DNA of 61,731 bases, the filler included, from Hausera hauseri (lineage: Eukaryota): NCBI GenBank assembly GCA_046269625.1. It is 11 parts of 11 records of this genome, joined end to end, with 100 filler letters (N's around TTAATTAATTAA, not from the genome) between each part and the next. Parts side by side here need not be neighbours in the genome. Positions count along the whole stretch, not along the records: positions 36,701 to 40,899 come from JBJURY010705882.1; 10 more parts are not named here. One strand, given 5' to 3'. Positions within the stretch are counted from its first letter, which is position 1. Each line of letters opens with the position of its first letter. Below the pieces are notes generated by a model. The model was given only the letters and a program-made list of their open reading frames with translations, made no database searches and was not told the origin of the DNA. Positions 4,310 through 60,136 of the stretch are shown piece after piece. A program made the position numbers and the translations under genes.

Positions 4310-4339
4310 TGTGATGAGTTGGGCGAATGGGGTATAAAA

Positions 4340-26400: not shown

Positions 26401-29345
26401 TCATGCTCTAATCATCATCAGGTGCATGGTACTGCATATTGTGGATCTTTTCTTTTGTAATTTTCTGGTGTTCCCAATTATTTCTGCTTCTGTCTTGGCA
26501 TACCGTGTTTAAACATAAGGAAATCATAGATAATTTGAAACATTATGCAATTCGGAACAACGTGTTGTCGCTTTTGTTTTTTTTTTTTTAAATTTATTTC
26601 GTTGGTGTTCTGCATTTTTGGTGCAATTGTAACAATATGACAGGAGTAGAGGGTAATGTGATTTAGCGTTCACATTTTACCTTGATGCGGGCATTTCTGA
26701 TATGATATACTTGCTTTTTTAGTACGGTACCTAAACACTTCCAAACGATCTAACTCCACTGCAAAATTTACTGTAAAGCCTGAGATAAGAACTATATAGT
26801 GGAACTGTTTTTTAAAATGTTTTTTTTTTTCAATTCTATTGGTGATAGGAAACATTTTTTATGAACTTATACCAGTGGTTAAATTTAACGTTCACGCCGT
26901 TGTTATTGACTAAACAGTTAATGCTTAGTGTAAGTAGATGACTTGTGAAAAGTTTTGTGTTATAGCAGTAACTGAGAAATGAAGAAATCGCAGCCTATGT
27001 CAAAAAAACACCAGTCATGTATAAGGACAATGGTACCCGGTATATCTGGAATCTTAGTAGCAAGAAAGGGCTTTGATTAATAGTCTTCCATCTTGTATCA
27101 TGTTCGCTGAAAGTTTGTAAATCCAGCCCTACATCTCTTATGACTGACATTTACCGTCAAGCTATTTAAATTTATAAAGTAGCGTACTTTCCATTATTGT
27201 GTAAAAAAAATCAGAGCATTTACTTCGTAGCTTTTTTATGGTTTACTTGTTTTATTATGTTGTTCTTGTTGTAATGCAGACATATCAGTGATATCAGTAA
27301 TAAATCTGTAAGTAGAAAGGAGGCAGTTCATCCATAAAGACAATTATATAGTGGAAAGTGGGAAATGATACCGGCACATGATTGGTTTATATTATCAACA
27401 CAACACCAGGTCGTCTTTACTTTCCCATAGAATTTCTCTGGTAACCGTATTTGAGGCTGGATGCCCCCTACGGCCACCCTCCACCCCAACCCCGGATCAC
27501 TGGTACCAACAAATGTAGGAGTAACCTGATAAACGAAAACCACAGCACACAGGACTACAGTCTTACTTAGACATTTACGTGAAATGTCTTTGTGAAATAA
27601 CCAAGAAACACGCTGGACTGACAATACTGAATATGCTCTCAAAGATTGAATGTCGACGTGCTATCAATCTAGCACGGTATTCCGATCAGAGGTGACTCGC
27701 TCCTCTCAGTGCCCAAGAGTAACTCCAATAGTAAATCAACGGAAATACTCGGATTCTTCAATGGTAGATTTGAGTATCTTCCGGAGTAATCCACTTACAC
27801 CCTGATTTNNNNNNNNNNNNNNNNNNNNNNNNNNNNNNNNNNNNNNNNNNNNTTAATTAATTAANNNNNNNNNNNNNNNNNNNNNNNNNNNNNNNNNNNN
27901 NNNNNNNNTGTGTATAAGGTGTATGTTTACATAGGTGAGTATGTGTGTATATATACATAGAATGAGGCATATGAATGTTTGATAAAGCTTGCTGTATATA
28001 GAATTTACGTTAGTCCGTTAATTTGTGGGAGTCTGAGTTTGTGTGGGAAAATATGTAAATGTCTGAAAATGTAAATGTGTGGAATATGAAAATACATGTT
28101 GTGAATGTCATGTAAATACAGCATAACCCTTCTTGATGCTTGGGAAGCCATACATCTAAAAAGAAGTGAAAGAATCAAAGAAAAATGTGAAAATATCAAA
28201 ACTAGAGATACGTTCTACTTAGCAGAAATCATCAGTTCTGCAAAAGCGATCGATACAAGACATTAATGGCACGCTAAAAAGATAAAAGGACCATTTTTAT
28301 ATACAGAAATTATTGGATTATTAAAATTGTCAACCGATATTTAAAGTTACGAATTATACTATAATTACATAATTGTTTAGACCAGGTTCAAAATTGAACT
28401 ATAATGATCATAAATTTATCATGTTGTTTGAGCACGGGAAACGATTAAGCCTTATTCAAATGTAACAAATCTTGGTTGTGGTAATCTTGAAATTAATGCT
28501 AAAGAAGTTGAGATTGAAGAATTTGAGGAAGAATAAAATCGTCTCTTACAGAAATACATTGTTTAAAGAGTCGCGAGAATAAATTGGACCAAAATTATGA
28601 ATCTCTCATCTATCCGTATATCCTAGAGACATTACAATGGTATCAAGATACAAATAAAATTTTGAAGATAAATTCTGTGAGAAGAAAGAGCAAAGATAAG
28701 CAAATCATCGCTCTCTTAGTGAAAATGGGTAACTTGAATAAGTGTTGCATAATACGTTTGAGAATAGTGACAGTCTTTGAAAGAAAACAGCAAACCATAG
28801 TTGTATCCAAAACGATGAAATGGATATATAAAAAATATTCTAAAAATGGCAAGTCTCAATCGTACCCAAAATAATGAAGCTGACAAGTGTAGGAATATTT
28901 TTATCACGTTAATGGGCACAAATTTAAATAATTGTGAAAGAAAGATCATGTTAGAATTAAAATTATTCATTCCTCATTTTAGCAAATGCATTCAGTTCAA
29001 TATCAAATAGATATAAAATATATCAATATACATATATAATGTAACGATATACATAAGTAAATATACACTTAGTGATAAAAATCACTAGAATGATCATCGA
29101 AATTTTGAAAGAATTGACAAATTAAAATTCAAAAAGGAATTTAAATGTATGAAGACAATTTCTGTTTTGGATTATGCCAAAAAACAATATCACGAAAAAA
29201 AGTAAAGACAGATGTGAAATTATTCGACCAGATTCAAAGTAGAAGCGTTCGAATATACAAAGAAACGCAAAGTAGATCTTCAGACTTTAAAATACACGAC
29301 AGAATCGAGATAGAAAGTGTGATGTTATACGAACAATAACCTGAA

Positions 29346-30539
29346 GTGAACAAGGTGGGATATCTAACGGAATTGAACTTTCCGTATCGTTTTATATTAC
29401 AATTTTCAAACGGTATGAACACAGTCGTTATAGTGTCAATCTTAGAGGTCCAAACGTCATTGACGTTTGACAGAAAAATCAAAAGAATAAGATTGTTTGC
29501 TAAAATTCGGGAGAGCTTCATCGTGCAACAGTTCACATCCACCAGTCCAACAAATGAAACCCAACTCACCAAAGGGGGAATGAATTGTATTTTGGTATCT
29601 GGTAAGCCATCGTATGATCCGTCTAAATCAGACGTAGGAAAATTGTACGATCAAGGGATTCAATATAATAGAAATGACTCAGGGTCGTATTTAAAATCAA
29701 ACCACCCCCCTGAAGTCTCATCGGGGATACATTCGATATTAGAAATGAATAAGGTCTTACCAAGTTATAAGATTCCTACCTCGAGTGAGGATTCATTAAA
29801 AGGTTCTTATTTTGTGTCAATAGATGTTAGAGAATATGTACAAAATAAAAAGTTTCAATTGTGCATTATGACATACTGTAAAGACCATATCGAACAAGAG
29901 AAATTATCAAATATAAAATTTAACCCTATAGAAAATATTGAAAGTAACAACATCAGTCAACTATTACAAGATCCTCCATCTGATTATCAAAATACATCGA
30001 TATATCAGAAAAAAACGGTATCGTGGGTAGACGAGCTTTGTGCAGGGCATTGGCATCCTTGTCATTATTGTGATGAAGAAATTGATATTGGGAACGGATC
30101 TAAGAACGTTTACATGGAGTTGGTGAGGAATAATGTTAATAATATTATTCGTTGTTGTTTAATTTCTGTTAATTTTGAATTGAATGGTATGGTGGGGGGA
30201 ATTATTTATACATTTAAGGGGATTAAAACGATTGAGTTGAGAGATAAAGTCAAGCAAGAATATTATTTTCATATCATAAGATATATTCGTGAGAAATATC
30301 ATATCTTATATTCAAGTAGATCGACGATAGAAAAAAGGTTAATTGAAGATAGAGAGACTTATGAATCGGATGGAAAATTGAGGGACATGAATTTAAATTT
30401 TAAAGGGGAAAACGTTTCGATAGGTGAGAAATTTCACTTTAAAAAGAGTACGTGTGATAACGGATTAGATTTATCATATAGAAATTGTATAAAACATCCA
30501 GAGCCTGAAATATATTTCATGGAAAAACTAAATGTCTAG
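29346..30539 (+). CDS. Hypothetical 397-aa intronless ORF (Cys/His cluster CAGHWHPCHYC) with upstream frameshifted pieces; 3' end abuts a Gypsy fragment
   Basis: Long open frame in very AT-rich DNA. No family recognised. Confidence 0.45.
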   Translation: MNKVGYLTELNFPYRFILQFSNGMNTVVIVSILEVQTSLTFDRKIKRIRLFAKIRESFIVQQFTSTSPTNETQLTKGGMNCILVSGKPSYDPSKSDVGKLYDQGIQYNRNDSGSYLKSNHPPEVSSGIHSILEMNKVLPSYKIPTSSEDSLKGSYFVSIDVREYVQNKKFQLCIMTYCKDHIEQEKLSNIKFNPIENIESNNISQLLQDPPSDYQNTSIYQKKTVSWVDELCAGHWHPCHYCDEEIDIGNGSKNVYMELVRNNVNNIIRCCLISVNFELNGMVGGIIYTFKGIKTIELRDKVKQEYYFHIIRYIREKYHILYSSRSTIEKRLIEDRETYESDGKLRDMNLNFKGENVSIGEKFHFKKSTCDNGLDLSYRNCIKHPEPEIYFMEKLNV

Positions 30540-31879
30540 GTGATGGCTGTTTTAACGTCATGATATGCAGAGACAAATTGACGGGATAGAAGCAAATGCT
30601 TGAAATGCTTTACCGCTAGAACTATGGCCAGGAGCTCACGATCGAATGTAGAATATGGACTTTATGGTTATGTGAGCTTTCGGGGATAGAATTCTAACGG
30701 CGGGTCGACGCCATTATATATTTGGTGTAAGACCGCACCAGTGGCTGTGGTAGAGGCATCGGTGGTTCATATTAGTTTTGAGTTGGGTTTTGGAAAAGCC
30801 AAGATTTCAACGGTTTTCAGACCTTCACGAAGACGATCAAAATGGTTTACTAGATCGGTATTCCAGTGGATTAATTGTCTTTTCTTCCCGGATGAGAGAT
30901 GTGCGAAAGGTGCCGTTAGTTCGGAGCAGTATGACACGTATTTGTGTACAAAGTGCAGTGTCTCTAGAAAACTCCTCATGTCTGTAGTAGTAATTGGTAA
31001 TGCCACACTTTTCAATTGTTGTAAGCGATCAGGCTGGGCCGAAAGACCTTCGGGAATAATTATGTGGCCTAAGAAATTGACGCGTTTCTGAAAGAAATTG
31101 CATTTGGCGAAATTGATTTGCAGGTTGCTTTGTTGCAATCTGTGGAAAATAATTCTAAGGTGATCATGATGTTGTTTGATCGTTGTGGAAGCGACTAATA
31201 TGTCACCTATGTATGGGTGAGCAAAATCAAGAGCTGAAAGAACGGTGTCAATGTGGCGCTGAAAGGTCTGAGATGCGCTATGTAGTCCGAAAGGCATGAA
31301 GATGTATTTACAAAGACAAAATGGCGTGATGACAGCAGTTTTTGGAATGTCATCAGGAATTTGATGGTAGGCTTTGTGCCGATCAATGGTAGAATAGGTA
31401 TTGGTGTTGTTAAGGCTATCAAGAATATCTTTAATGAGTAATAGTGGATAGGCGTCTGTAATAGTTAGACTGTTTAATTGTCGATAGTCGCCATATGGCC
31501 TATAGGTACCATCTTTCTTTACCATTACATGAAGAGGAAAAGTCCACGGTAAATTCGATCTCCAAACGATGTCAGACTTTTTCAGTTCATTAAATTCCTG
31601 TTCCGCAGCTTTACGCCTGCGCGGCGACAAAGGTCTGACCTTTCGTTTGATAGGTTTCTGATGCTCTGTTACTATATTGTGATAAGTTGTGAATGGAGAC
31701 TTGAAGTTGACGTCCCTTTTAACTGTGCGAAAGCAAAACGTTGTGACGTATTATTTAAGATCGGAGTCTAGAGACAAGAATGAATGAGGCATATTATCGG
31801 ATGAGACAATTGCAGTAATTGACGAAGAACAACCGGCATTGCCACTGTCAATATTCAGTTTGAATTTTTGCTTTAAAAT
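30535..31879 (-). mobile_element. Ty3/Gypsy pol fragment (RT + RNase H), inactive
   Basis: PLHVMVKKDGTYRPYGDYRQLN, KAYHQI, MPFGLHSASQTFQR, catalytic YIDD mutated to YIGD, KCNF..VNFLGH. RNase H TDAS..GAVLHQ..YSTFDRELLA. Confidence 0.93.
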
Positions 31880-31979
31880 NNNNNNNNNNNNNNNNNNNNN
31901 NNNNNNNNNNNNNNNNNNNNNNNTTAATTAATTAANNNNNNNNNNNNNNNNNNNNNNNNNNNNNNNNNNNNNNNNNNNN

Positions 31980-34630
31980 CCTGTGAAGGATATCGTTGAC
32001 TAATGGTAGAGGGTAGGCATCCATTGTTGTTATGGTGTTGAGTTGGCGGTAATCACCGCATGGGCGAAAGATGCCATCTTTTTTTGGAACCACATGCAGT
32101 GGTGAAGACCAGGGGGATTTGGATCTTCTGATTATGCCTGATTTTTCAAGGTCGAGAAACTCAGCTTCCACTGCCTGTCTGCGACGAGGCGATAGCGAAC
32201 AAACCTTTTGACGTATTGGTCTCTGACGTGCTATTACTATGTGATGAAAGGTGGATTAAGGTAGTACAAATGATTTGTCCTTTTGCAACAGACGCGTGCA
32301 GAAGGACAAAATGTATTGTTGTAAATCAGAAGGCAAAGATGACAAGTTATCAGATGGTATCAATGCATCGTGACTGGATGCAGTTGAGGTATGAGTTATA
32401 AATGAGGTGTTGTGACTGGGTGGTATTTGGTGCAGGATGTTCGTCTTGAAGATGGTGTTGGCAGCTGTGTTATTAAAAATAGGTGCCACGCAGTTTTCAA
32501 TATCGCATTTGTCACCGTATTAAAAATTTTTATATAATGAATGATTATAAAAATAATTCAAATCGGAAGTCGTTTTCTTTGGTATCGACGTACTGGACGC
32601 GATCGCCGGGGTGGTCATCGAAATGCTACTGATTTGATTAATATTATTTCCGCTTTTTAATGAACATTGTTTGCAATCTACAAGTAAATTGTATTGGGAC
32701 AGAAAGTCTGAACCCCATACAGGTGTGTGTACATTGGCTACTGTAAATTTCCATGTGAATGTGTTTGTGAAGTGTGGAAGAGTGAATTTTAATTTGGTAA
32801 CTCCAAAAATTTGTAAAGGTTCACCGGAGGCAGTGAACAGTTGCTTTTGCGAAGTGTAATTGTGTTGTATGAGCTGTGTTGGTGGCAGTAGAGAGATTGC
32901 TGCGCCGGTGTCTATAAGAAAGTTTATTTTTTGTATTGTTGGATTGATGACTGCTGCTTCTAACGTGAATACAGCAAAAGAAATGTGTCGCCTGTGTTTT
33001 TGCAGGTTGTTGACTTTGCTAGGACTTGCCGTGTGTCCTAACGGCGAAATTAGTTTTTTGGAGTTGGTGAATTTGGCCTACTGTATTGTGTGAACTTATT
33101 AGTGTTGGTCTTATTGTGTGTGCTGTAGGTGCAACCAGGCAGGAATTTTTGTGCTTTTGTGCCAAATGTTGAGTGGTAGATGCAATCCATGTTGCCTGTA
33201 TTAAAACCAGGAGAATAAAATTTACAACCGACGCAGCATTTCTGAGCATTTTTGCAAAATTTGCTATGATGATAGCAAATTAATGACCGCGCTGGCGAAG
33301 GCTACCGTTTTTGACGTTGATTAAACACATTAGGGGAAGCAGGCCTAGAAAAACCCCGTCTAGGTAGTGTTAATGCGTTTAGTTTGTCGTTAATATTGTT
33401 GATTGTTTTTTGTAATGCTTCATTTTCTGTGCGAAATTGCACAATTTGTTGCTGCAACATTGCATTTTGTTATCGTTGATCTTTTGTCAATGCTGCAGAG
33501 ATAGTTGGTACTGCATGTGAATGCATTACTTCGTATGCCTTGTCTGTCAGTTCGGCTAGCTTGTCAAGTGCCATGGAGTCTTCAACCACAGTTAGCAAAG
33601 CTCTATTTGAAGGGGCAATGCGTTTAAGAAATAGCGACGAAGAAGCACGGGATTGTATTCAGAGGTTACGCCAAGGGTGTTGAGGTGAGACAAGGATGTG
33701 CGTAGGAATTCAGCAGGCTTTTGATGACCCATGGCGTTGTCATTAAAGAACCTTTGAATGATTGAATCGATTGAAGGCTCAGTAAGCTTGAGGACTGCAT
33801 TATAAAGTTGTGTATATGGGTAAGCATGTTGAAATATATCGATTATATTGGTGATTTTAGTTTTCATGGAAGCTGGTAAATGGAAGAAGAGGCTGTTGGC
33901 TTTGGCTAAAGAGTCGACGACATTTTGCGATTGGAGCCAAAATTAGTGCAGTTTTAGCCAAGTTTGAGTAGAGTTTTGGCTGTCGAGAAGATATTCTGTG
34001 CAGGGTGAATGCACAAGGAGGGTGTGTTGTGTTAAAGTGTTTAAAATGCTTTGTTTGGATAAATTTATGATGGGGATCTGCGGCGTGGTAAGTTTCTCAG
34101 TGGTGTCAAATGCGGTTGACGAGTCCATGCCACCACGGATACGGAAATAAATGTGAAGACAGATGCGGGTTGAGGACGATTGTAGTGTTCCAGCGAGGGG
34201 TACTAGAGATCCATTGTATGTGAGGTAGAAATCAGAGGAGTGGAGTAATGTCGAGATAAAGGTGTAAATGGCTGCAGTATGTAAGTGTAATGCTGTGTGT
34301 ATGGATATGTTTGTTAGAACCAGACTGACTAGTTGGGTAATCCGGAAGGCTTGAGGTATAGATAAGAAAGGTGTATATAGTATATATAGAGGTATGTGTG
34401 TAAGAGTGCGTGTGTTTATGTACAGAACGGAGTGAGTAAATGATGACGTTGTATATAGGTATATTGTACATATATTTTTATGTTTATCATGTGAATTTTG
34501 TGTGGAATGAAAATTGTTTGTAGAAAACTTGCGTGCTTGATGATGTAAAATAGGTATGGGAATCCAATATAATGTGTTGTAATTGCTGTAAATAAATAGC
34601 CCGGGTCGACATTCGGGGAATCAGAAGACG
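31980..34630 (-). mobile_element. Decayed Ty3/Gypsy element, copy B (same family as 770-3230)
   Basis: Colinear nucleotide similarity to copy A. Gag MDSS..., protease FLIDTGAAISLLP, RT start SGIIRRSKSPWSSPLHVVPKKDGIFRPCGDYRQLN. Confidence 0.93.
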
Positions 34631-35309
34631 AGAACAACCATTGTTATTTACCATACTAATCGTAATTCTGTTCTATTACTCAATGAATTGTAACGTCATC
34701 AAACGTGGTAATTAGTTACAGAGGATCCACAAGGAATTCATCACATATCAATTCTGAAGGCAATAAATAATAGATGTTAATATCTAAACAGCAAACCCCA
34801 ACTGTATTTAAAATGACGAAAAATATGTGAGAAAAAACAGCTAACCACAATTGTATACAGAACAATAGAAAAAAAGGTTCTGCTGAATGTATTTCAATAA
34901 TGAATATTTCAATAAGAACATAAGAGTCCTCAACACAAAGCTAAACTAATGCAAAGTGTATGAGTAGACATGATTATTTGATAAAACACGTTACTACGTA
35001 CAAAGTTCAGTAAGTCAATTTTAGAAGTACAGTTAAAAGTTAAATTTTCTGAACTAAAGATTCTTGTACAATCTATATGCATTAAATAAGTTGATATAAT
35101 AAACCAGAGTTATCGATATTATTGGAATTACAAAATACAAAAGTTCAAAAAAAGATATTCTGCGGTTGGCATAGTAAAAAATAAAAATTAGAAATTAGTA
35201 CGCTAGACGGAATTTTTATATTAAAAGGAAAAAAAGAGAATCGTTGAACTGCAGATAACGGAAAGGAGAAAATTTGAGTAAGAAGAATTGAATCAAATAT
35301 AAAAGTACG

Positions 35310-35885
35310 ATGAAGGATCATAGTTGTATCAGAAATTTCGGTATATCATTTGTAAGAACGAGAATATCTATTCTACTTGAAGTTAACACATCGATGATCA
35401 CAAAAGATGGTTTAAAATTCGATATGAATCATTTCTCGAGTTTGCAACTGTCGATCGAAGTTATTGAAGATTTCGAACATAATGGAGGTTGGTTAAATGG
35501 AAATGGCAAAGCGATCGTCGTGAGATCTATCTCTGAGAAGGAGTGTGAAACGAGTTGTCGACGTGTTGCGAGGATCTTTCCCAAATTTATTTTGGATGTT
35601 CAACTTGCTAACTATAGAGGTTATAACTTAACGGCGGGATGTTATGTTGGAAGAACGGTAAATCTCATGTTTTCCCGTCAAACAAATTACGAATTTGGTT
35701 CTCTCTCTCCTAAAAGATTTCCCACATTAAATTACAAAGTGATTCATCCAGATGTAATATTTACAATCCTCCGTATAGGCAATGTCTATTTGTCAGGTGT
35801 TAAAAATAACGCTAAAGTAGATGGGGCTTATAAGAAGTTCGATAAGTCGTTGGTCAAAGATTGGAGAGCGTCTTACTACTTCTGA
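35310..35885 (+). CDS. Divergent TATA-binding-protein family member (TBP/TRF2-like), intronless
   Basis: Both TBP repeats align by eye: IRNFGISF ~ LQNIVST; FDMNHF ~ [31 protein letters not shown] ~ [34 protein letters not shown] ~ [44 protein letters not shown] ~ [35 protein letters not shown]. Confidence 0.8.
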   Translation: [191 protein letters not shown]

Positions 35886-36600: not shown

Positions 36601-37797
36601 NNNNNNNNNNNNNNNNNNNNNNNNNNNNNNNNNNNNNNNNNNNNTTAATTAATTAANNNNNNNNNNNNNNNNNNNNNNNNNNNNNNNNNNNNNNNNNNNN
36701 ATAGACTTGAACTGATAATATCTGTTTTGCAACTTCTTTCGAGGCGGAAGATCGGGCCCGACGCGGCGGCAACGGACGCCCGGCCGTGTCCAACCAAGTG
36801 GGCCAGAGAGCACCGGCCGCTGTGGGCACCACAATCATGATTCTGCAGAATTTTGGTAAAAACTGCAACGAATCAGTAAGACTTTAGAAATGAAACACAA
36901 AAATTCAAAAGCTGGATTAGTACAAAAATTACAAATTAAATTCAACGTAAATTAAATCTTCAAACAAAATTGTTCAGTCCTCACTAATTCCAATGGGCGA
37001 AGCTTCTTAACACGTGTATGAAATAGTGGAAGTGAACAAGGCTATTGCGCGTTCGTATGTGAAATGTGCAGTTCGGACAGGAATATGCAACCTTACCTAT
37101 GACTAACGTATAGGTAATGTGTAGGGGACAGTGATATACATTACGTGAGTTTCTAAGGTTGAATTAGCGTACGCCTTACTTAGTTATTTGAGGATGGCTC
37201 CGGACCGACCGTGTGTCGGTACCTGTGCCAATATTGAGTGTGCTTAATGAAAATTACTTAGCGTTGAGAATCACATATGTACAATGAATTAAAAAACAAT
37301 ATTAAAATGCAATATGTAATCAATATAACAAATCTTACAAGTTGCCATGAAGCATATAGATAAAGACACAAGTCAAAAAAACTGTTCAATTCATTTACAA
37401 ATGATTTCTATATTTATAGTACTTTAAGACCGTCTCAGAAAAAATTATATTTACATATAACGTCTCAAAATACGTACAGATAGAAATATAATTGTACTTG
37501 TCTTTTGCCGAAAAGAATTAATGGTTATAGATCACGTTATAATTCAGAGTTGTATTATCTCACCGTCCGCAATATAGTCGGAATCATATTATTTCAATGT
37601 TAAAATCTATAGTCGGAATAATTAATTCAAATCAAGAGTTGCACTGCGACATATGGAACAACATGTGGAGTTCAATTCAACAAACTGATGGGGGTGAAGA
37701 AAATTGTCCCCAATTTACGGTTGCGGCGGTAGGAAGATTGTCTTTCCAGATGGGGCTTTGTAACGAATGGCGTCCATTGTGTAAATTTCACCATCTA

Positions 37798-38668
37798 TCA
37801 ACATTTCCTCGTCCATAGAGAGCTTTTTTTATTGGTTGGAGTCAGTGGTGCTTTTAACACTTTCTCGGGAGCCGTCTTTTCATTGATTAGTTCATCTGAC
37901 CATTGCAATGTTCGATATAATGCCTGAAAGCATTGTACCATTACAGTACTCCTTAATGGCATCGTTCGAGTCTTGTAGAACTTTTTAGTTAGTTCCCGTG
38001 GATTAATTGATTCCATAGGATATTTACGGAGAATCTCTGTGATATAAGATATCACGAATTCCTAAGATTCTCCGTAGTGGACACTTCAGGTAAGTCGAAA
38101 TTGTGTTGATTATATCGGTCCCGATGACCATCTTATCCGTTAAGATTTCCCAAATCTTATTGTAAAATTGTTGGACGTCCATTTGATTAGTAACTTGTAA
38201 CTCTGAAAGACCGGTCACATGTGTGTCGTAATTGTTTATTCGTTGTCTCGGCGTTATTAGCGTATAGAACAGCGGATGCCCATTGATTTTTATAATAGAG
38301 CATTCCATGGGTTGCATTTGATTGTATTGGTCAAACGCCAGATTGACAGCCAATATTACGCAATCTTCTGGGTTTATTTCTTTAGTCCGACTATAGGATT
38401 TCTCTTTTAAGGTCACGTAATTGGCTTCGGGGAAATTAAAACACTTGCAAGAATGGTTTATTGACCATTGTTTTTCAGTTTTTATTACTTCCACGCTGAG
38501 CATGATTTCGTTAGCTAGTGATCTCATTTTAATAGAATTCGTGAGTGTGAAGTTAAATTCTATGGATATGCCATGACATTGGTCCAGGTTTATTATATCC
38601 CCGGCTATTTTTGTTTTTGTTTCTTTAGTTTTTACTTGAAATCTTCCGGCTGTTATAGATTTGGACAC
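37798..38668 (-). CDS. DEDDh/REX4-ISG20-like exonuclease fold, catalytic motifs degenerate, frameshifted near 38040
   Basis: MECSIIKINGHPLFYTLITPRQRINNYDTHVTGLSELQV...IWEILTDKMVIGTDIINTI...IRDI matches the REX4-type pattern (RVSIVN..G.V.YD..VKP...VTDYRT.VSGI...L.GRILVGH...D...RDT). ExoI reads ILAVNLAFD rather than VALDCEMV. Confidence 0.7.
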
Positions 38669-39196
38669 TGCGATAGTTATCCGGCATTATGATCAGATCT
38701 TTTAGTAGAAATGACATGGCCTTCGTAAGGTGTACCAATGTTATCGATCGGTTTGCCATATTATATCCTTTTAGATTGTTTGGGATTTGTTGTACTTGAG
38801 AATAGTTTAATGAAAAAGTGTCGTTGGTTGAATTCGCGTTCATCAGATATTTTCGAGCGTTGTCGAACCAATGTTTTGAACGTTGTATTGATTGAATCTG
38901 GCTGAGTACTGTAAAGACAGAATGTAAATAATAGTCAATGCAAAAACTAACAAATATCGCAACGGTTGTCGCATTTACATAGGCAATCGTCTGTCTTTTT
39001 CTATAATAATTTAATAGGGTAACGGGTTATCTCGTTATTTTTTTCGGTTTGGTTACGTCTGTCATAGTCGTGAACTATAATTGTCAGCTTGGATTATCTA
39101 CATCCAAGACATTTGGTATACGTCGCAGGTTTATCCTTATCCACTTTACTCTGCGGAGTTTTCGTAGATAACGGATCAATTTTACTACTAACACTG

Positions 39197-40555
39197 TCAT
39201 GTTATTAATGCAACACAAATTATTGTGCATATTATTATTATCTCCAACCTTGAATGTGTATATCTTGTTTGCGAAGGCATTAGGGTTGTCGACTGACTAA
39301 CAGTCGCCTTTTTAAATGTTAGTTTTATCTCTACTTCACTTTTCGTCTGAGCTGTTAAAACTTTGGTAGAAACTATCTTATCGGCATCGTCAAATAGTTG
39401 CAAAATAATCGTGTATCTGGTATTTGGAGTCAACGTTGCACATGGAACTATTATATCATCTGGTGTTATGGTTCTTTTTGCCATTATTGTATCTCGTATT
39501 CTACACGTGAACTTTATTTTTGAAAAATCGAGATCTGGTTTTAAAGATATTATTAGCGCCGTCGGAGCGGTTGTGGCCGTTACATTGTCCCATACGGAAC
39601 GCTTTACTTGGTAATATGACACGTAAGGCCTAATTAAAACAGTCATTTCCCTTTCACCACTTTTTCTATTTAGTGAGGGCCGCATAGTTGGCACCGTTAC
39701 GTTTGTTCCTTTTTCTTCCTGTTCGATTCGATTTTGATATCGCATGTACATTGTTGGACCTTTCCTCTTTAAACAACTTAGAAACTTTCCATATTCCTTT
39801 CGAAATATTATATAGTTTAATTCGTATATTCTACCTCTAGTAACGTTGCAACAAACTTTTGTTGGTTCGACAGTTATTCTATATCTCGTTACTATATTCT
39901 CTCGAGTATTCATTTCTTTTATAAATATGGCTATCCATCGTATGTATTCTAAATCTATCCTACTTCTTACTTCGATGCAACTTCTTCCATTTTTAAATCC
40001 AACTGATCTAGCCAATAACTGGTTTAAAATTATTTCTTCTAACAATGTCTCATTCATTTCGTGTCTAGTGGGAACTTTTATAACTTTGGCAAGTTTGGTA
40101 AATTGACTTTGATAATAACTTCCTTTCTTCTTTCTGAGTGTGAGATACACATAGTGGATTCCTGAATTTTCCATAACACATTGTGTTTCCTTTATCTATG
40201 AATGGAGTAAACAATTATACTTTCGTTCGTTAGGATTCCTCTGGTATCATCGTAGGGTATTAACTGTATTCCTATCATATATTTGGTAGTCATCGGTTTT
40301 AAAGTATGCCAAATGATGCATTTTTTGACCATTGCTTGAATATGTTACTCGGCATCGTAAACTTTTTAATAACAAATCTTCGTCTATGGCTCTTGCGTGC
40401 CGAATTTTTGCTCGTTCTATGTCCTGTTTTGTCGCCTGACTTAAAACTGATGGGATTAGCATGAAAAAAATAATTATTACAACATATTTCCTTATTCCGT
40501 AAAATTCTCGTGTTCGTTTGGTTTCTGGTACTTTTTCGCAAATGCTTTTCACCAA
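39197..40555 (-). CDS. Accessory type-I membrane protein (signal/TM, FN3-like repeats, TM) in the env position, with internal stops near 40200-40250
   Basis: N-terminal hydrophobic YVVIIIFFMLIPSVLS. FN3-like NVTATTAPTALIISLKP...CATLTPNTRYTIILQLF...VLTAQTK. Ser/Thr stalk, then C-terminal TM LEIIIICTIICVALIT. Confidence 0.65.
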
Positions 40556-40999
40556 GTCTTGTTCATCTTTTCTAAGCTTACTTACTTTGGTTGCCGGTTT
40601 TCATCTATTAACATGGACCTTGAGAGAGACGTTATTTTTCTTTAAACAGATATTCGGTAAGTCCACCCTTTCTACTTTGTATGGTCCTTTATACAGTCCG
40701 TCTAATTTTGATGTTTTACCCTTTTTACTTAGTGGAGTGTATAACATCATTCTGTCTCCTACATTGATTTTTGATAGCTTTGTCTTTTCGTCGTAATATT
40801 TCTTATATTTCGGCTTATAACTCTTTTGATTGTCTTCTATTACTTTATATGTCAGTCGGAAACATTCTTGCATTAGTTGTTTATACTCTTCTATTTCCAN
40901 NNNNNNNNNNNNNNNNNNNNNNNNNNNNNNNNNNNNNNNNNNNTTAATTAATTAANNNNNNNNNNNNNNNNNNNNNNNNNNNNNNNNNNNNNNNNNNNN

Positions 41000-42594
41000 A
41001 TACTTAATTTATTAATACCCAACATTCGTCTTACACATTCAATTTCTACTTCACAGACATTATTAAATCCTTTTAAATATCGAATTTGCTTAACTTTTAA
41101 TACATTAAGTTCTTCATTTATAGGCACTTTTCTAAGTTCATTTATCGCCTTAATTATTTTATCAAAACAGTGACTACATTTGTATCTTTGAAAAATGTCA
41201 ATAAATCGTCTAACCTTCAACCGTCTTTCTATTTCATTCTCCTCTTCTACTATATTTTCATTTAGGCCAAAACTTCCTATCTTTAAAGTTTGTTTCAGAA
41301 ACTTTTCTAACTTAACTTTATTTATCTCAGTACTAATTGTATTTATTTTATTTCTATATTCTCCTTAACTAATTTTGTATCTTTCACAATTTCATGATTC
41401 AGTAAGGCTACCATTTTTAATAATTTTTCTGGATCCTTTGACTTCTCTAATCTTTTTCCTAAATCATGTTCATCTTCGGATCCTTCCGAATCTACATTAT
41501 CTTCTTCTCTAATCATTAAATACTGTTTTTCGAATATGCTCACATCGTCAGAAACTTCTAGGATATTAACATCTATGCTCTTTACATTATCATAATTTTA
41601 TTCCTAATTTATCTGGCATACTTGCCTTTCCATTTATATGTATGTCGTCTATCTCATTAGTTTCTAAACATTCATTATCAATTTTTATTCCAATCAAATT
41701 CTCCAATTCATTACTTATTTCTATATTTTCGACCTTCTTCTTCTCAACCTTTCGGGGTACGTTTAGAATATCAAACTTCTTAATGTTCAATTCTTCCATC
41801 AATTCATTGTCGTCCATCCTTTCGCCCTATTTACTATAATTCCCAGAATCCGGTTCTTTATCCGTTACTACATCCAAATTCGTATTTGATTCTATATCAA
41901 TCAAAGAACTTTCAACATTATTTTCACTATCCAAGATTACCGTGCTTAGATCGGATTCAATGATCACATTTTCATCGCTTCCACTACTAGAATCGGTGGA
42001 CGGTGCCCTTAAATAGTTTTCACTCAATTCATTTGCAATATAGATACACTCATGTTCCAACAAACTTTCAACATCCTTTACTTTTGACGCTTTGGTCAAA
42101 TTTATTTCGACCGCATTTAATTCAGCACTTAGTTCCTTTCCGTCTTGACAATACCAATTCCTACAACTGGCTCCTTGTAAGCAATCGCCATATTTACTTA
42201 TAAACTTCTTCTCTTCATTTTCCCAAAATTTGAATATTTCATTATCATCATCGTCATCCTGATTAATTTCTTCTAAACAACCATAATCACACATCATTTG
42301 TTTAATAGTCTTCGTCTGTTCTGGATACTCTATTTTCTTACAATAACTGTCATTCTTAGGTTTTTCTTTTAATTTCTTATTCTTTGCTCCCAACATATTA
42401 GCTTGATTCCCATGTAATACTTTTAACCTATTCATTTGGGTGCGCATCTCATCCCTTTCGGCTCTCAATTGTTTCAGTTTAAATTCTACGTTCACACTAT
42501 TTAAATTCTGACAGTTTTCAACATTGCTCTCATAATTTCCTATTTGATTCCATGCATTTTCATAACACTCATAATTTTCAGTTTTCCGAATCAT
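41000..42594 (-). pseudogene. Long coiled-coil/acidic coding region in the -1 frame after gag; no protease motif before the contig end
   Basis: ORFs 41827-42594, 41590-41817, 41343-41543 and 41000-41220 are separated by stops and are very E/D/N/K-rich. Confidence 0.55.
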
Positions 42595-43920
42595 TCAATT
42601 GGGTCTCGAAATCCTGGTTATTTTGCATGAGGGTTAGTTTATTATTGGTCGACAACAATGGGCATTTCTTCCAAACATGTCCGATTTGATTACAGTGATA
42701 GCAAAATCTATTTTCGTTTATTATACTTACCTGAGTTGAACAGTTTCAAGCTACATGTTCCCATTGTGCACAAACATTGAACTGCTTAGGTTGTTGAATA
42801 TAAGTTGGCATTAATACCGGGATCCTTTTAACTTCTTGGCAGGACTTGGCAATATGTCCAAATTTCTTGCACTGGTTGCACTGGATTGATCTTCTGTAGT
42901 TGACTTTGTCCCTTTCTAACGCCATTGCCTGTTGCTGCGTAACTAGTGATCTAAGGGGATATCGTTTTTGCTGTTCTGGAGGAGTAACCCATTGTGTTTT
43001 GTTCAAATTTGCTCCAGCAACCATGTTTTTAATAGGAGTACCCATTCTTTGTGGTTGTAAATTTGCTCTTATACGTGATTTTACGGTATTTGGGTCAATA
43101 TTGGAAAACAATTTTTGAATAAAGTTTTGGTTAGTGCCAACATTCCAACGAGGCGGACCCCAACGCGGTATCAAAGGAACTTGCCAACCGGCCTGTCCAT
43201 ATGACCACGATGGAGTTCGCCAAGGCTGATTAAATCGCCTAAAATTTTGATTTTGATTTTGAGGTCTAAAGTTACTACTTGAAATTTGATTATTATTAAT
43301 TGAGTTTTGATTAATTTGATTTAATTTGTTTTCTACGTTTTCAAAATTTATAGCTTTTCTTATTAGCTCACTCAGGGTAGAAACGTCACTTTCGATCAAT
43401 TGTCTCTGTAGCTTGGGGCTATTAAGTTCAATGATAAAAGAATCTATCAAAATTGGTTCCATTGCAAAAACCTTAGATGCACCTTTATCATCTTTGGCAG
43501 TATCATCCTTCTCCAATGCTTTCTTATAACGTTTTCCAAGTAATTGAAGGGCGAAAGCAAATTTATTAACAGATTCTCCTGGTATTTGGACTCTAGATCG
43601 TAGACTTCTTAGTTTTGCATTTGAGGATGGATCGGGATCCAGGTTTCTTCTAAGTACATCGACAAATTTATCCCAATTCATTTTCTCCTTTTCCTCAATT
43701 TGCAGATAAGCTTGTAAAGCAATTCCTTCCAAATGTGCAACTAAACGTTTAATTTTCTCCTTATCATTCCATTCTAATCCGTCTGCTTGTGCCGCGTATA
43801 CTAACATAAAATCATCAAATTCCGTGGTTTCCCCGGAGTAACGTCCTAAATTTAGGTTTACAAATGTGGACGTTCTCCGTACTTGCGAATATTTAAACTC
43901 TTCTGTAGGGGTGATAGCAC
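42578..43920 (-). CDS. Gypsy Gag with three CCHC zinc knuckles (middle one broken by a stop at 42746)
   Basis: Retrotrans_gag-like W...K..L..HLEGIAL..Y...R.Q.PGESV..F...L. Knuckles CNQCKKFGHIAKSC, (F)NVCAQWEHVA*NC and CYHCNQIGHVWKKC. The frame ends at G GAA AAC TGA (42578-42587). Confidence 0.88.
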
Positions 43921-44028
43921 TATTTTCAGTAACCTTTCTTATAATATTTTCACTTACGACTACCTTTTCGTCAAGTGACCTCTTCGACTTATTAGCCAGA
44001 CCAGAGAAATTTTAAATTCGAAAATCGT

Positions 44029-55053: not shown

Positions 55054-55600
55054 GGTCCACCAGTCCACAGGGAAGTCTCTTTGGAGCAGGGAAGTATTTC
55101 TTTAAATTGAGGTAAGTGTTTAAGGTCAGTACCTCACCTCAGACCCGGAGATTAATTGTTTGCAGGGGTTAACTTTAGAGTTTAGGGGTCATGTGGGCAA
55201 ATTATCGATCCGTTTTTTCTTTTAAATTAGTATGGGGCGTCAAATTCTGGGGTTATTTTTTTGGAAAATGTGGTCGGGGGGGACGATGGATGGCCGTAAC
55301 ACATCACAGGGTTAATATGAGGCGATTCCTCCCTGGGGTTAATGTCAGGGTTGGCAGTCAGGGTGGGGGTTAAAATTTGACCCAAAGGGGTTAATATGAG
55401 GTAATAATATAATAATATAATAATATAATCAGGTTAATATTAGGTATAGATAATGACCATGAACATAGTGCAGGTTATAATAAGTGATTATATTAGTAGT
55501 GAAGACAGCCATAATATCAACAATATAATAATAAGTTAATAACAGTACCATCCATAGATTTTATTTCAGTATTTATTTATTTATTTATTTACTTATTTAT

Positions 55601-57817
55601 TTATTTTTCATTTAACCCCTTAGGTGTCACTGTGTCCAGTTTGGAGATCCAAAGTCTCTCAGCTCTCCTCCTCTGGGCGAGTGACCAGGTGGGATCACAT
55701 TCTAAGATGGTGGCTTTTACAGATTCCCACCCATGAAGAATAAAATGCTGGACCAGAGGTGTGTGTGTCTCTTTCTTTTTATTAATGTTATGTCTGTGTT
55801 GTGTAAATCTCGTCAGCAGTGTGTTCCCAGTCTCTCCCACATATTGGGCTCCACACTGCTGACATGAGATAAGATACACACAGTTTCTTGTCCGGGAGCA
55901 CCCCCTGCTGGCCGTTTTGAAAATTGTTTTATTATATTTGTTTTGGACCCATCTCAGTTGTTTGAAGAATTCCTGCTGACCTTTGACCTTCGGCGTGGTG
56001 AGCGGCTTTAACTTGGCATGTACCAAGTAATCCTTCAGATTTTTATTCCTTCTATATGCCCCAATGATTCTATGATCCAATAGGAGTTGGCTTTCTTTTT
56101 GGAATTTTTCAAAATTAATTTTAATGTTTTTAACTAATTTCATGGCAGATGGAGAATAATTAGTTACAAAAGGGATAATGGCCTCCACAGCAGTTGGTTT
56201 GGTCAGCAGGAATGTCTTCAAACACTTTCTCAGGAAGGACCTCGAGTATCCTCTCCCGGACAGAGCTGAAAACAACACTTTAGTTGCAGTTTTAAAATCT
56301 GACTGCTGTGTGCAAATTCTGTGAAATCTTAACAATTGGGATTTGATAAGTCCTGCATAGGTGTGCTTGGGGTGAAAACTACTTTTGTATAATAGGGCAT
56401 GTGTGTCTGTGTCCTTAAAGAAGACTTTAACGTCCAGGACGTGTGTGTCTTTAAAATTTGGGCCTTTGAATGTGGTGGTGTCCAGAAAATCTACAGATGT
56501 GAGGTGTGTGGTGGCTTTAAGTTTAATGGATGGGTTGTGTGTGTTCAGTGAGTCCAGGAAAGTCTCGAAGTCCCTCTCTGAGTGGGTCCACACACCCCAG
56601 ATGTCATCCAGATACCTATAATAGAAAAGAGGTTTTTTCTCACACCTCTCAAGGGCTGACTCCTCCCACAAAGCCATAAAGATGTTGGCATAGCCAGGTG
56701 CAAACTTTTTACCCATGGCAGTTCCCTTTATTTGTAAGAAATATTCATTATTAAATTCAAAGTCATTTTTTGTCAAATTAATTTCTAATAGTTGGATTAG
56801 CTCCTTCTCAGGTCTCGAACTGCATGGATATTTTCTAAATATGGTTTTCACTGCCTCAATTCCTTCATTTATAGGGATATTAGTGTACAGGCTCTCGACA
56901 TCCATTGTGAAGAGGATCGCATCGTCAGGTAAGTGGATATTTTTTATTTTATTTACAAAATCATATGTATCTTTAATATAACTATTGTGTTTTATAGATA
57001 GAGGAGTTAAATAATAATCAATAAATTCAGCTGTATAATAGGTTTCACTCCCACAATCTGAGACGATGGGCCTCCCACTGGGCACTTCAAAGGGTCGAGA
57101 CCAAGTACTGGGTTCCTTATGGATTTTAGGCAGTAAATAAAACCTTCTGGCTCTGGGCTCCTCAGAGCCAATTAAGTACTTTCGCTGTTTAGCATTGATA
57201 AACTTTTTAATATATAAGTTATTAATAATTTTAGTGATAAGGGGTATAGTTTCTATATAGATAGGTTTGGTTAGTTTAGAATAATAGTGAGTATTATTAA
57301 GTTGTTTATATCCTTCATATAAATATTGATCTCTATCCATAATTACTATAGCGCTCCCCTTATCTGCAGGTTTAATAATAATGTTTCTATTGTTTAATAG
57401 TTCTTTAAGAGCCAAGGTTTCTTCTTTATTTAGATTAGGTTTATTTTTATATAATTTAAAGTTTTTTTGAAAATAATCCATGTCATTTTTTATTAGGGTG
57501 GAGACCTGAGGAGGGAGTCTGACCAACGCTGGTTCCCAGCTGGATTTGGGAGTAAAAGGAGGTATGTCTGTGTTGTTATCATCTTTATAATAAACTGCTA
57601 GTTTGATTCTTTTATGGTATTGTTGTATATCATATTTATTTTGTGCTAGAATGTTATTATTATTATTCCCTGTAGAGGGGACAAAGGTTAAGCCTTTATT
57701 TAGTAAGGTTAACTGTGCACTTGTTAGTTTGAAAGTTTTAGACAGATTAATGACATTTTTATTCCCCTCCTGTGAGGACAGGCTTGTGGGGAAATCTATT
57801 TTAAATGCTGCATCCAA
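55601..57817 (-). CDS. PLE reverse transcriptase + C-terminal GIY-YIG endonuclease (ORF2; listed start is TTG, probably expressed by -1 frameshift)
   Basis: VINLS..L...LL.KGLTF.P, IIKPADKG, FYLLPKIHK, GRPIVS, MDVESLYTNIP, GTAMG..FAP.YANIFM, YLDD, DFLD, AYRRNKNLKDYLV, CVYLISCQQCGAQYVGETG..L..RF..H...H...H, E..WI..L....P.GLN. 738 aa without interruption. Confidence 0.96.
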   Translation of the reverse strand: MDAAFKIDFPTSLSSQEGNKNVINLSKTFKLTSAQLTLLNKGLTFVPSTGNNNNNILAQNKYDIQQYHKRIKLAVYYKDDNNTDIPPFTPKSSWEPALVRLPPQVSTLIKNDMDYFQKNFKLYKNKPNLNKEETLALKELLNNRNIIIKPADKGSAIVIMDRDQYLYEGYKQLNNTHYYSKLTKPIYIETIPLITKIINNLYIKKFINAKQRKYLIGSEEPRARRFYLLPKIHKEPSTWSRPFEVPSGRPIVSDCGSETYYTAEFIDYYLTPLSIKHNSYIKDTYDFVNKIKNIHLPDDAILFTMDVESLYTNIPINEGIEAVKTIFRKYPCSSRPEKELIQLLEINLTKNDFEFNNEYFLQIKGTAMGKKFAPGYANIFMALWEESALERCEKKPLFYYRYLDDIWGVWTHSERDFETFLDSLNTHNPSIKLKATTHLTSVDFLDTTTFKGPNFKDTHVLDVKVFFKDTDTHALLYKSSFHPKHTYAGLIKSQLLRFHRICTQQSDFKTATKVLFSALSGRGYSRSFLRKCLKTFLLTKPTAVEAIIPFVTNYSPSAMKLVKNIKINFEKFQKESQLLLDHRIIGAYRRNKNLKDYLVHAKLKPLTTPKVKGQQEFFKQLRWVQNKYNKTIFKTASRGCSRTRNCVYLISCQQCGAQYVGETGNTLLTRFTQHRHNINKKKETHTPLVQHFILHGWESVKATILECDPTWSLAQRRRAERLWISKLDTVTPKGLNEK
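57762..57805 (-). promoter_or_regulatory. Predicted -1 programmed ribosomal frameshift signal
   Basis: Slippery U_UUA_AAA (57805-57799) in the ORF1 frame just before its UAG, 5-nt spacer UAGAU, then hairpin UUCCCC-ACAAG-CCUGU-CCUC-ACAGG-A-GGGGAA. The -1 frame is ORF2. Confidence 0.75.
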
Positions 57818-59931
57818 TGCTCAAACATGCAAATAGCTGTACCTTTGGACCAGTGAATGAGATCTTTCTCAGTTCTAAAGCTCTCTTGTAGAAGAGGGAT
57901 GTGGTGATCATACCCCTGGATTGTAGAGTTGAGTCTCTCCAGGAGGTCCTGATCCCTGCGAGGGAGGGAGGTGGAGAAGTTCACCTGAGGGATGAAGATC
58001 TGTGCTGCTGGTAGTTTCCTCATCGCCGTGGCAACAGCCTCCTCCATCTCCGCGACCACAGCCTGGAGGCTCCTCTGTGACCTGTCGTTGAGGCCGAAGG
58101 AAAGGACCAGCTTCTCCACCTCGCAGTCCACCTCGACCGTCCGCAGCAGGTGGGTGGCGTGCTCCCATTTGGCTCCTGCGAAGCTCTCCACCTGGAGGTC
58201 GGATCCATCGTAGGTGGGAAAGCGTGCCAGGTTGGAGTCTCCCACGATGACGTGTTTCTTGTTGATGTGCAATTTCCACTCCAGTTTCTTGTCAAACCTG
58301 GCGATGTGCTTGATGGGCCTAGTCATCCAGGGTGAGGAGGTTTCAGCCTGTGGTCCTGATGCTGCGGCCCCCGGTCTGGGCCTGATGAGTGGGCTCCCCG
58401 TCAAGGTCGTTTGGATGCAGGAGCGCCGCAGACGTCCCATCGGCTCCTCCAGTGGTGGGGTGTTGAAGGTGTAGTCCCCCAGATCTATGAGGTCCAGGTC
58501 CTCCTGGTCCTCCTCCTCTGCTGCCGACAGTCCATGATGCTGGGGGGTGGACGTGGTTGGAGAAGGAGATGTGGAGATGGCGGTCAGCTCACCTTGTGGC
58601 GTTCTCTGAGGTAAGGGAAGAGGCGGGGTCTGCTTTTCCTGTGGGGTCTCCGGTGTGATGAGGGGCCCCCCTTGTGAGGAGGATTGTGTGGAGTCCCCGA
58701 AGGCTGTTGTCCCCACTCTATCAGGCGACCAGTCACTCCTTTGGGGGTCAGTCATTGTCGCCATGTCCAGCAGGAGGCGAGCTGGAGTCCTGATGAAGGG
58801 GATGACAGGTGAGAGCTGTACAGGATTCTGCTCACCTGGTCCAGCTGTTGGTGAAGGGCTGGATGTAGGCTGGTTTTGTGCAGGAGAAGGAGAGGGGGAT
58901 GATGAGGATGATGAAGATGATGATGATGAGGAAGAGGAGGAGGCAGGATCAGTCCTCCTGTCTGGCCCACCTGGCGATGCTGGTGTTGGTGCAGGGGGGG
59001 AGGAGGAGGGTGGTGGAGAGGAAGGCCCCGTCCCCCTGGGTGGCTCATCTCCTGCAGGGGTTGTGGTCTCAGGGCCAGACCTCAGGAGCCTCTCCACTTC
59101 ATTTAGGGTCTCCTGCTTGAGACGCCTGCCCAGGTTCCTTCTGGCCCACTTGGTGGCAATTTGGAGAGGGCCTTCCAGGTCCACAAAGGCATAAAGTGAC
59201 AGGTCACTTAGTTCCTTGCAGATGGCCTGGTCGTAGTGTCCCTGCAGGATCTGCATGGTTGTGTGGGCCCAGTTGTGTGCATTTAATTCAATAAGGGACA
59301 GGGTGTTGTGGGTGGGGTTAGCAGGTTTAATTACAGAGGTCAGCTGGTCTTGGATCCTCTGCACAGCTGGTGGAAACTCACTCTTTGCCACGTTTGCAGA
59401 GTGATGAACAGCTTTGATCAGTCTGTGGATTGATCTGATCTTGTCTGTGAAGTGTGGATCATCACTCTGGATCGGCTGTGAGCGCTGGGTGGGGGGGCGG
59501 GGGGGGCGGGGTCTGTTGCGGGGTACATACCGCTGTTGTTGTCGGAATCTTGGCTGCCCGCTGCGGTTTCTGAGGGGCCTCTGTCCCCGGTTGCGGCTAG
59601 GATCAAGGCGCCGCTGATCAAAGGGGCCGCGGCTCCAGAAGCCGCCACGATCGACGTCATCCGGGGATCTCCAGCGGTTTCCCCGTTGCTGGTATCGGCG
59701 TGTGCTGCCGCGCCGGTCGCGCTGATCTCGGCCCCTCCGCGGGTAGCTGTGGTCCGGTCTGCCCCTCACCACCTCCGCGTAGGTCCGCTGTCTCGGCCGC
59801 GGCTCGGCTCGGCGCGGCTGTTCCCAGTGGCGTGGATTGGAGCTCCGGTTCCGGAAGCGTGGACGTCCTGCGTTGGGGTTGCTACGCAACCCGACTCGGG
59901 TCCAGCTGGGAGAACGGTCCCTCCACGGCAT
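57796..59931 (-). CDS. PLE ORF1: Arg-rich N-terminus, helical domain, Pro/Ser-rich linker, C-terminal SGNH/GDSL hydrolase
   Basis: 711-aa ATG-initiated ORF. SGNH blocks: I VIVGDSNL, II FAGAK, III SFGLND, V DLIHW (Ser-Gly-Asn-His plus Asp all present). Confidence 0.85.
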   Translation of the reverse strand: MPWRDRSPSWTRVGLRSNPNAGRPRFRNRSSNPRHWEQPRRAEPRPRQRTYAEVVRGRPDHSYPRRGRDQRDRRGSTRRYQQRGNRWRSPDDVDRGGFWSRGPFDQRRLDPSRNRGQRPLRNRSGQPRFRQQQRYVPRNRPRPPRPPTQRSQPIQSDDPHFTDKIRSIHRLIKAVHHSANVAKSEFPPAVQRIQDQLTSVIKPANPTHNTLSLIELNAHNWAHTTMQILQGHYDQAICKELSDLSLYAFVDLEGPLQIATKWARRNLGRRLKQETLNEVERLLRSGPETTTPAGDEPPRGTGPSSPPPSSSPPAPTPASPGGPDRRTDPASSSSSSSSSSSSSSSPSPSPAQNQPTSSPSPTAGPGEQNPVQLSPVIPFIRTPARLLLDMATMTDPQRSDWSPDRVGTTAFGDSTQSSSQGGPLITPETPQEKQTPPLPLPQRTPQGELTAISTSPSPTTSTPQHHGLSAAEEEDQEDLDLIDLGDYTFNTPPLEEPMGRLRRSCIQTTLTGSPLIRPRPGAAASGPQAETSSPWMTRPIKHIARFDKKLEWKLHINKKHVIVGDSNLARFPTYDGSDLQVESFAGAKWEHATHLLRTVEVDCEVEKLVLSFGLNDRSQRSLQAVVAEMEEAVATAMRKLPAAQIFIPQVNFSTSLPRRDQDLLERLNSTIQGYDHHIPLLQESFRTEKDLIHWSKGTAICMFEHWMQHLK

Positions 59932-60136
59932 GTTGGTTCCGGGTTTTGATTTAAAATATTTATAAAAAAAATGTTTTAAAAGTTATAAAAAAAATGTGAA
60001 AAAGGACTGGATTTTTTTCTTAATTAAAAGGTGGTTTAGTTTGTGAAAAAAGAGGCTTTGAATTTTGCGAACTCGCACTTTAATAAACGATTTTTTTCAA
60101 AAAAAATGGAACAATAAAAGTACAAAAATACAAAAA

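Follow-up and report, generated by a model that had tools for sequence, protein, structure and literature searches.

The env position of a likely Ty3/gypsy element from Hausera hauseri is occupied by a predicted membrane protein with an FN3 domain, behind which lies the gene of a DEDDh pseudo-exonuclease. The cassette is real. It is decayed, occurs in many diverged copies, and contains a well-supported FN3 domain together with a pseudonuclease that was likely under selection. Our working interpretation, which we hold tentatively and give somewhat less than an even chance, is that it encodes an FN3 cell-attachment protein, not a fusogen, together with an RNA-binding pseudonuclease adaptor. Though accessory ORFs of retrotransposons are known, the combination of an FN3 membrane protein and a dead DEDDh domain in env position was not described in the literature searched.

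The whole cassette is carried on the minus strand of one 4.2-kb contig (36701-40899) within the window, the stretch of 61,731 nucleotides that was analysed. The window is a chain of separate 3-7 kb contigs joined by N linkers with a fixed spacer, and contigs on the two sides of a linker are not genomic neighbours. The parts of the cassette, in the direction of reading, are:

40604..40897, minus strand: C-terminal GPY/F module, likely of a Ty3/gypsy integrase (translation and a motif pattern; in-frame stop at 40603)
40430..40498, minus strand: internal signal-peptide-like segment in the integrase frame (Kyte-Doolittle 2.04)
40082..40399, minus strand: N-terminal part of the ectodomain, possibly a degenerate FN3 repeat (fold uncertain; stops at 40249 and 40198)
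39746..40030, minus strand: likely second FN3-like repeat (seven strands, residues 61-143 of a low-confidence model)
39323..39601, minus strand: membrane-proximal FN3 domain (tenascin match, single-sequence model, structure searches)
39250..39322, minus strand: Ser/Thr-rich stalk (translation)
39190..39247, minus strand: transmembrane (TM) segment (hydropathy 2.33; helix pLDDT 85-89; frameshift near 39200)
39084..39189, minus strand: basic cytoplasmic tail, ending at the stop at 39086-39084
38721..39070, minus strand: likely start of the second ORF (stop at 39029, frameshift near 38730)
38357..38686, minus strand: domain of about 110 residues preceding the nuclease-like domain (open frame; no Pfam match, one weak PHROG match)
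37798..38356, minus strand: ISG20/REX4-like DEDDh pseudo-exonuclease (PDB matches; frameshift near 38030-38060)

From the GPY/F-type integrase tail through the signal-like segment, the ectodomain and the TM segment to the basic tail, the parts follow each other in frame, and the open frame from 40897 to 39200 holds 3 stops in 566 codons compared to 68 and 38 in the two other frames. The stops and frameshifts make the copy at 36701-40899 a decayed one, that is a pseudogene. The original prediction had placed an integrase, a signal/TM segment, an FN3-like ectodomain, a TM segment, a further hydrophobic segment and a DEDDh fold in this order, which agrees with the frame, the hydropathy, the PDB matches and the FN3 model. 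The FN3 domains lie at 39323-40400 and not at 37798-38668. None of the cassette's domains (integrase tail, ectodomain pieces, nuclease-like part) was detected by Pfam, and PHROG scans gave nothing useful for it.

We take the module at 40604..40897 to be of GPY/F type on the strength of a motif pattern written while viewing the sequence; the pattern is matched by the integrase tail and by 0 of 20000 shuffles. The tail has neither a Pfam nor a PDB match. The contig end at 40899 falls inside the integrase, no LTR or RT was found on the contig (36701-40899), there is no clear polypurine tract in 36701-37800, and elsewhere in the window there is no LTR and no further copy of the element. Judged from its sequence, the element is likely a Ty3/gypsy retrotransposon of a multi-copy family, represented here by its decayed 3′ half. 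A gag on the next contig (42746-44011) was considered as part of the element and rejected, since an assembly linker lies between the two. At the far end of the element's own contig, 36701-36840 and 36981-37260 have very high summed depth (23550 and 150-520) in the public run described below; these are short high-copy repeats that may stem from an independent insertion or belong to an LTR.

Other retroelement sequence is found in the window. The gag at 42746-44011 (minus strand) has a CCHC knuckle (Pfam Retrotrans_gag E 9e-5) and is followed, in place of a protease, by an acidic 255-codon ORF at 41827-42594 (minus strand). Two related decayed gag-protease-RT stretches at 889-3069 and 30767-34299 (minus strand) are 81-94% alike over several blocks, and the latter has two RT starts. 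Two intact-looking ORFs of 739 and 728 codons at 55601-59982 (minus strand), with an RT and a GIY-YIG-like end, belong to what we take to be a likely Penelope-type element; this region is partly 59% GC compared to about 35% elsewhere, has direct repeats at 55054-55668 and 61146-61731, and might derive from another organism present in the sample. Outside the retroelements, an intronless, strongly diverged TATA-binding-protein-like ORF lies at 35295-35867 (plus strand; best PDB match E 2e-10), directly followed by a 256-codon open frame; the TBP-like ORF points to a eukaryotic host. There is additionally a 399-codon open frame with a Cys/His cluster at 29340-30539 (plus strand), as well as broken ORF pieces at 4306-5321 (minus strand) that are presumably cullin-like.

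An FN3 beta-sandwich at 39323-39601 is well supported by modelling. The sole PDB sequence match of this piece is the tenascin FN3 domain (1TEN) at E 0.55, a value that is flattering because the piece was chosen by eye. Its Leu-x-Pro-x-Thr-x-Tyr motif (of the form Leu-x-Pro-x-x-x-Tyr before the F strand) stands in register with that of 1TEN, and a Leu lies opposite tenascin's conserved B-strand Trp, the FN3 Trp being absent. The Pfam fn3 cut-off is not reached by the ectodomain. When the single-sequence model (pLDDT 72.8) was searched with Foldseek, nearly all matches were FN3 domains (TM up to 0.69, probability 1.0, best E 0.003, none below 0.001), among them those of monobodies, tenascin, fibronectin, Dscam and receptor phosphatases. 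VIA-align gave Z values of 8-8.8, and in its ranking Ig-like domains of glycosidases score as high as FN3 receptors.

Models of the longer region make one or two more FN3 repeats in the ectodomain likely. The piece at 40082..40399 has no informative Pfam match, 39746..40030 on its own has no sequence match, and for the 332-residue ORF neither Pfam nor a sequence search of the PDB gave a match; in an atlas of language-model features this ORF falls near FN3 clusters at 0.75-0.77, which we treat as a lead only. Its single-sequence model is poor (pLDDT 38) and was used as a hint only; compared to tandem-FN3 fragments it aligns over about 280 columns, with a best E of 5e-4 and 4 matches at E below 0.001, at an rmsd above 20 Å. 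The two putative FN3 repeats do not align to each other by BLASTP, and a profile of the two matches nothing. Both folds that had been anticipated, FN3 and DEDDh, thus find matches, the one in the FN3 model and structure searches and the other in PDB matches at E 0.0017-0.03. For the anticipated "FN3-like repeats" one domain stands on its model (pLDDT 72.8), and the plural is likely, with the low-confidence model as its basis.

The signal-like segment at 40430..40498 consists of basic residues, 12 hydrophobic residues and a small-residue end, from which cleavage was inferred by eye. The ectodomain of about 390 residues (393) is basic (68 K/R compared to 39 D/E) and has 4 sequons and 9 cysteines, while the cytoplasmic tail has 10 K/R and 0 D/E in 24 residues; the predicted topology is type I with a positive-inside tail. 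FN3 arrays on type I membrane proteins are adhesion and receptor modules. There is no furin site followed by a fusion peptide: one RxxR occurs at 40402, and no hydrophobic peak lies between the signal and the TM segment. Among the matches listed in fold searches of the ectodomain model, which for the whole ectodomain is of low confidence, there is no F or gB fold. Of the two roles originally suggested, an adhesion protein fits the FN3 content, and an alternative envelope would fit for attachment alone and not as a fusogen.

Between the tail stop at 39086-39084 and the hydrophobic stretch at 38963-38900 lie two further stops, and the hydropathy of this stretch is 1.62 in the open frame and 1.76 in another frame. 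The segment at 38721..39070 has 5 N-glycosylation sequons in 102 residues compared to 1.9 expected (P 0.017, uncorrected, one of 8 segments tested), and the nuclease-like domain itself has none. Sequons near the second hydrophobic stretch are a hint that the second ORF might be luminal, for which an RNA-adaptor role would be ill-suited.

All three PDB matches of the nuclease-like domain are DEDDh proteins, namely ISG20L2, ISG20 and the PolC exonuclease (E 0.0027, 0.0047 and 0.031). Bridging the frameshift with X brings the E to 0.0017, and the ISG20L2 envelope, which had stopped at residue 119, then reaches residue 190; the HMMER alignments reach only the middle of the domain. The domain is below detection by Pfam, and its atlas neighbours are arenavirus nucleoprotein, RNase T and DEDDh clusters (0.84-0.87, lead only). 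With the ExoI and ExoIII registers set by eye, the D, E, D, H and D positions are Asn, Ala, Thr, Leu and Met. No D-x-E (ExoI) occurs in any register within the first 45 residues, and in ExoII a Thr lies opposite the ISG20L2 Asp. For ExoIII the Leu and Met depend on a register that we set by eye from the expected motifs; the helix, which HMMER did not align, is without His or Asp. The suggested replacement of the ExoI acidic residues is therefore borne out by the missing D-x-E, and the ExoII position and, in the register set by eye, those of ExoIII are likewise non-acidic.

The dead form likely has been selected: differences among copies are mostly synonymous in the exonuclease-like part, and the catalytic codons have changed too much for decay. 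In these five codons, 11 of the 15 bases depart from the closest canonical codon (P 4e-6, even with divergence taken as 18%). The differences are spread unevenly: the two ExoI codons are each 1 base from an acidic codon and the other three are each 3 bases off. In reads across 38135-38327, 13 of 19 listed differences (share at least 12%) are synonymous compared to 25% expected (P about 1e-4, crude pN/pS 0.16), with 6, 1 and 12 at the three codon positions; these 19 rows are not independent, as three pairs share a codon. This narrower comparison is blind within about 30 bases of its ends, and misses a difference at 38334; the codons of ExoI and ExoII sit close to those ends and are consequently unread in it. 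In the wider comparison base 38334, beside ExoI, is different at 97% of the depth, while no ExoI codon figures in the 40 rows listed (of 848; share at least 0.90). As all 40 listed rows have a share of at least 0.90, these differences belong for the most part to this copy alone and appear neutral, with 5 of 16 synonymous in the ectodomain and 0 of 12 in the integrase tail (within the same 40 of 848 rows). No synonymous excess is thus visible for the FN3 gene among near-private rows. Loss of the acidic residues is likely older than the decay of this copy, given the 11 of 15 bases and the synonymous excess (13 of 19); by this sequence evidence, the loss of catalysis likely predates the spread of the copies, with the dead domain still under selection.

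All other copies come from one public run (X1). It contains pieces identical to the window, and is probably the source of its DNA, so it is not independent. In this run 3217 contigs match the stretch, 2539 of them less than 95% alike, and together they cover 30 of 30 bins; 161 contigs are at 99% identity or more, 517 at 95-99%, 1200 at 90-95% and 1339 under 90%. Depth, which is not copy number, is 5-7 for the identical pieces and sums to 18-1234 over the cassette bins. Many diverged copies of the element are thus seen, though their dispersal through the genome lies outside these data, and the cassette is not absent from other copies, the diverged ones covering the whole of it (30/30 bins). Rows from other copies at 40584-40591 and 40384-40392 belong to contigs with 52-71 letters to their own end. 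In other copies, too, the integrase end therefore runs into the linker and the signal segment into the ectodomain, with at least one such contig crossing the former junction and one crossing the latter.

A different picture emerges past the tail stop. Directly beyond it, at 39083, 11 contigs turn unlike and the depth falls from 1234 to 59 (about 20-fold), which we read as the likely true end of the first ORF and which makes the nuclease gene likely a second one. One of the checks originally proposed was whether the ORFs form a single polyprotein; with the stop at 39086-39084 and the contigs turning unlike at 39083, the cassette is probably two ORFs and the nuclease gene is probably separate. 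Among the contigs listed, none from another copy bridges the stop at 39084 with 31 letters on each side, so the linkage of the first ORF to the nuclease is seen in this copy alone, and perhaps only some members of the family carry the nuclease gene.

Under our working interpretation, the FN3 protein would be translated as a continuation of Pol, or else from a spliced mRNA. It would then be freed at the internal signal sequence and displayed on the surface of the cell or particle. Its basic FN3 domains could then bind neighbouring cells, with capsids passing by contact or uptake and without a fusogen of their own. The pseudonuclease might keep nucleic-acid binding only, as Exuperantia and PML-PXL do, and so hold or shield element RNA near that membrane; RNA binding is here suggested by analogy to these two proteins. 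In a bolder version, which we find unlikely, this would amount to a third route to infectivity besides viral fusogens and FAST-like peptides, in which a host-type FN3 adhesion receptor was captured and fused to Pol, and a membrane-anchored dead nuclease loads RNA at cell contacts.

The same proteins might instead serve counter-defence, the FN3 protein as a decoy receptor and the dead DEDDh domain as a competitor of host 3′-5′ nucleases or small-RNA factors that protects the element inside the cell; antagonism of small-RNA silencing was the role originally suggested for the domain. The nearest PDB sequences are from the antiviral ISG20 family, the nuclease domain of arenavirus nucleoprotein stands first in the atlas (0.87, lead only), and the structure matches include cytokine receptors with FN3 domains. 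The available part of PMC5408684 describes Maelstrom and EXD1, which act in piRNA biogenesis, as DEDD derivatives without activity. However, no receptor family is singled out (the Z values are tied), no link of the domain to small RNA was found, and the place after the integrase, with a signal and a TM segment, mirrors env genes, which leaves this reading doubtful. The cassette could also be a chimera or passenger. Host sequences for an FN3 receptor and an exonuclease would then have come along with no part in spread, or the nuclease gene would be that of another element or of a sub-family only. We consider this decidedly unlikely: the in-frame join to the integrase, the lack of visible introns, the diverged copies along the entire cassette and the synonymous excess in the nuclease-like part argue against it, though the 11 contigs that turn unlike past the stop, the depth drop there, the lack of a listed bridge from another copy and an FN3 gene without visible synonymous excess speak for it.

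Two further alternatives concern one protein each. It is highly improbable that the ectodomain is a strongly diverged class II fusion protein with a domain III of FN3 topology, even though Gc of the Atlas belpaovirus has such a domain ahead of its stem and TM segment (PMC9094657, as far as its available text goes). One phasivirus Gn-Gc does appear in the viral fold search, at rank 26 (E 0.035), but the sequence aligns with tenascin FN3 including Leu-x-Pro-x-Thr-x-Tyr, and the whole-ectodomain model, at low confidence, matches tandem FN3 arrays. The 9 cysteines in 393 residues are additionally few for a class II protein. For the nuclease, it is very unlikely that the mobile element had an active exonuclease whose catalytic residues were lost no earlier than the decay of this copy. 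Though this copy is decayed, both ExoI positions are one base from an acidic codon, and the ExoI and ExoII codons are out of reach of the narrower read comparison, the other three catalytic positions are each three bases off, and none of the 40 rows listed (of 848) falls on an ExoI codon, although the neighbouring 38334 is different at 97% of the depth.

To our knowledge, env genes of LTR retrotransposons are either virus-derived (F, gB, Gn-Gc) or small fusogenic peptides. If our interpretation is right, a surface protein of host FN3 type in place of env would add to the routes by which jumping genes pass between cells, and would explain some cases of "ORF3 of unknown function" missed by searches seeded with F or gB. 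A nuclease that is selected yet free of catalysis would also show cleanly whether such domains serve retroelements for binding RNA or as enzymes, a question that the rotifer ORF3s did not settle.

No relative came up in word-based protein searches, whether seeded with the ectodomain, the nuclease-like piece or the integrase tail, or in scans of metagenome and viral contigs. The single match (P0001) in a HMMER scan of 1.84 billion representatives was rejected as a tandem-repeat protein scored over five weak stretches. In full-text literature, a search outside which Repbase, GyDB and most subscription journals fall, no FN3 protein or DEDDh pseudonuclease is given as LTR-retrotransposon cargo among the matches listed; the available parts of papers on OVEX1, Odin and Cer1 hold no precedent, and DnaQ-like exonucleases are described as known accessory domains in the accessible portion of a review (PMC6338049).

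The nearest comparison for the membrane protein is errantivirus env, which likewise has a signal peptide, ectodomain and TM segment after pol in a Ty3/gypsy element. The original statement that errantivirus env is F-like holds for the F type, but a herpesvirus gB type is described as well (PMC13524379, in the part available), and the words "fibronectin", "FN3" and "exonuclease" do not occur in its main text as available. The protein described here differs in its FN3-based ectodomain and in having no furin site then fusion peptide. As in the Atlas belpaovirus, where Env is in the Gag-Pol frame and Gc has an FN3-topology domain before the stem and TM segment (PMC9094657, available text), the protein continues the pol frame; unlike that class II fusogen of a Bel/Pao element, it is better matched by tandem canonical FN3. 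A non-Env membrane protein for cell-to-cell transfer, our working model here, has a parallel in sORF2 of MDG1-group retrotransposons, a small TM protein reported, in the accessible part of PMC11952523, to mediate env-independent transfer of capsids between cells, though sORF2 is a short FAST-like fusogen and the ectodomain here is about 390 residues.

For the nuclease-like domain, Exuperantia and PML-PXL similarly have a DEDD fold without catalytic residues and are pseudo-exonucleases that bind nucleic acid or RNA, but these are host proteins with a SAM-like subdomain, none of them reported as transposon cargo in the available text (PMC13659232). Captured DEDD exonucleases in retroelements, which had been cited as established, are indeed reported, but those are of DEDDy type and catalytically intact, not DEDDh (PMC5408684, available part). 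In that account LTR elements of bdelloid rotifers carry enzyme ORF3s and TM ORF3s, and ORF3 of the LTR retrotransposons Juno and Vesta is DEDDy (RNase D-like), keeps its catalytic residues and lacks a TM segment. The cassette described here resembles these in placing an exonuclease-like or TM-bearing extra ORF 3′ of the integrase in a gypsy-like element, and differs from them in that its exonuclease-like domain is DEDDh (ISG20/REX4-like), dead, preceded by a hydrophobic segment and accompanied by an FN3 membrane protein.
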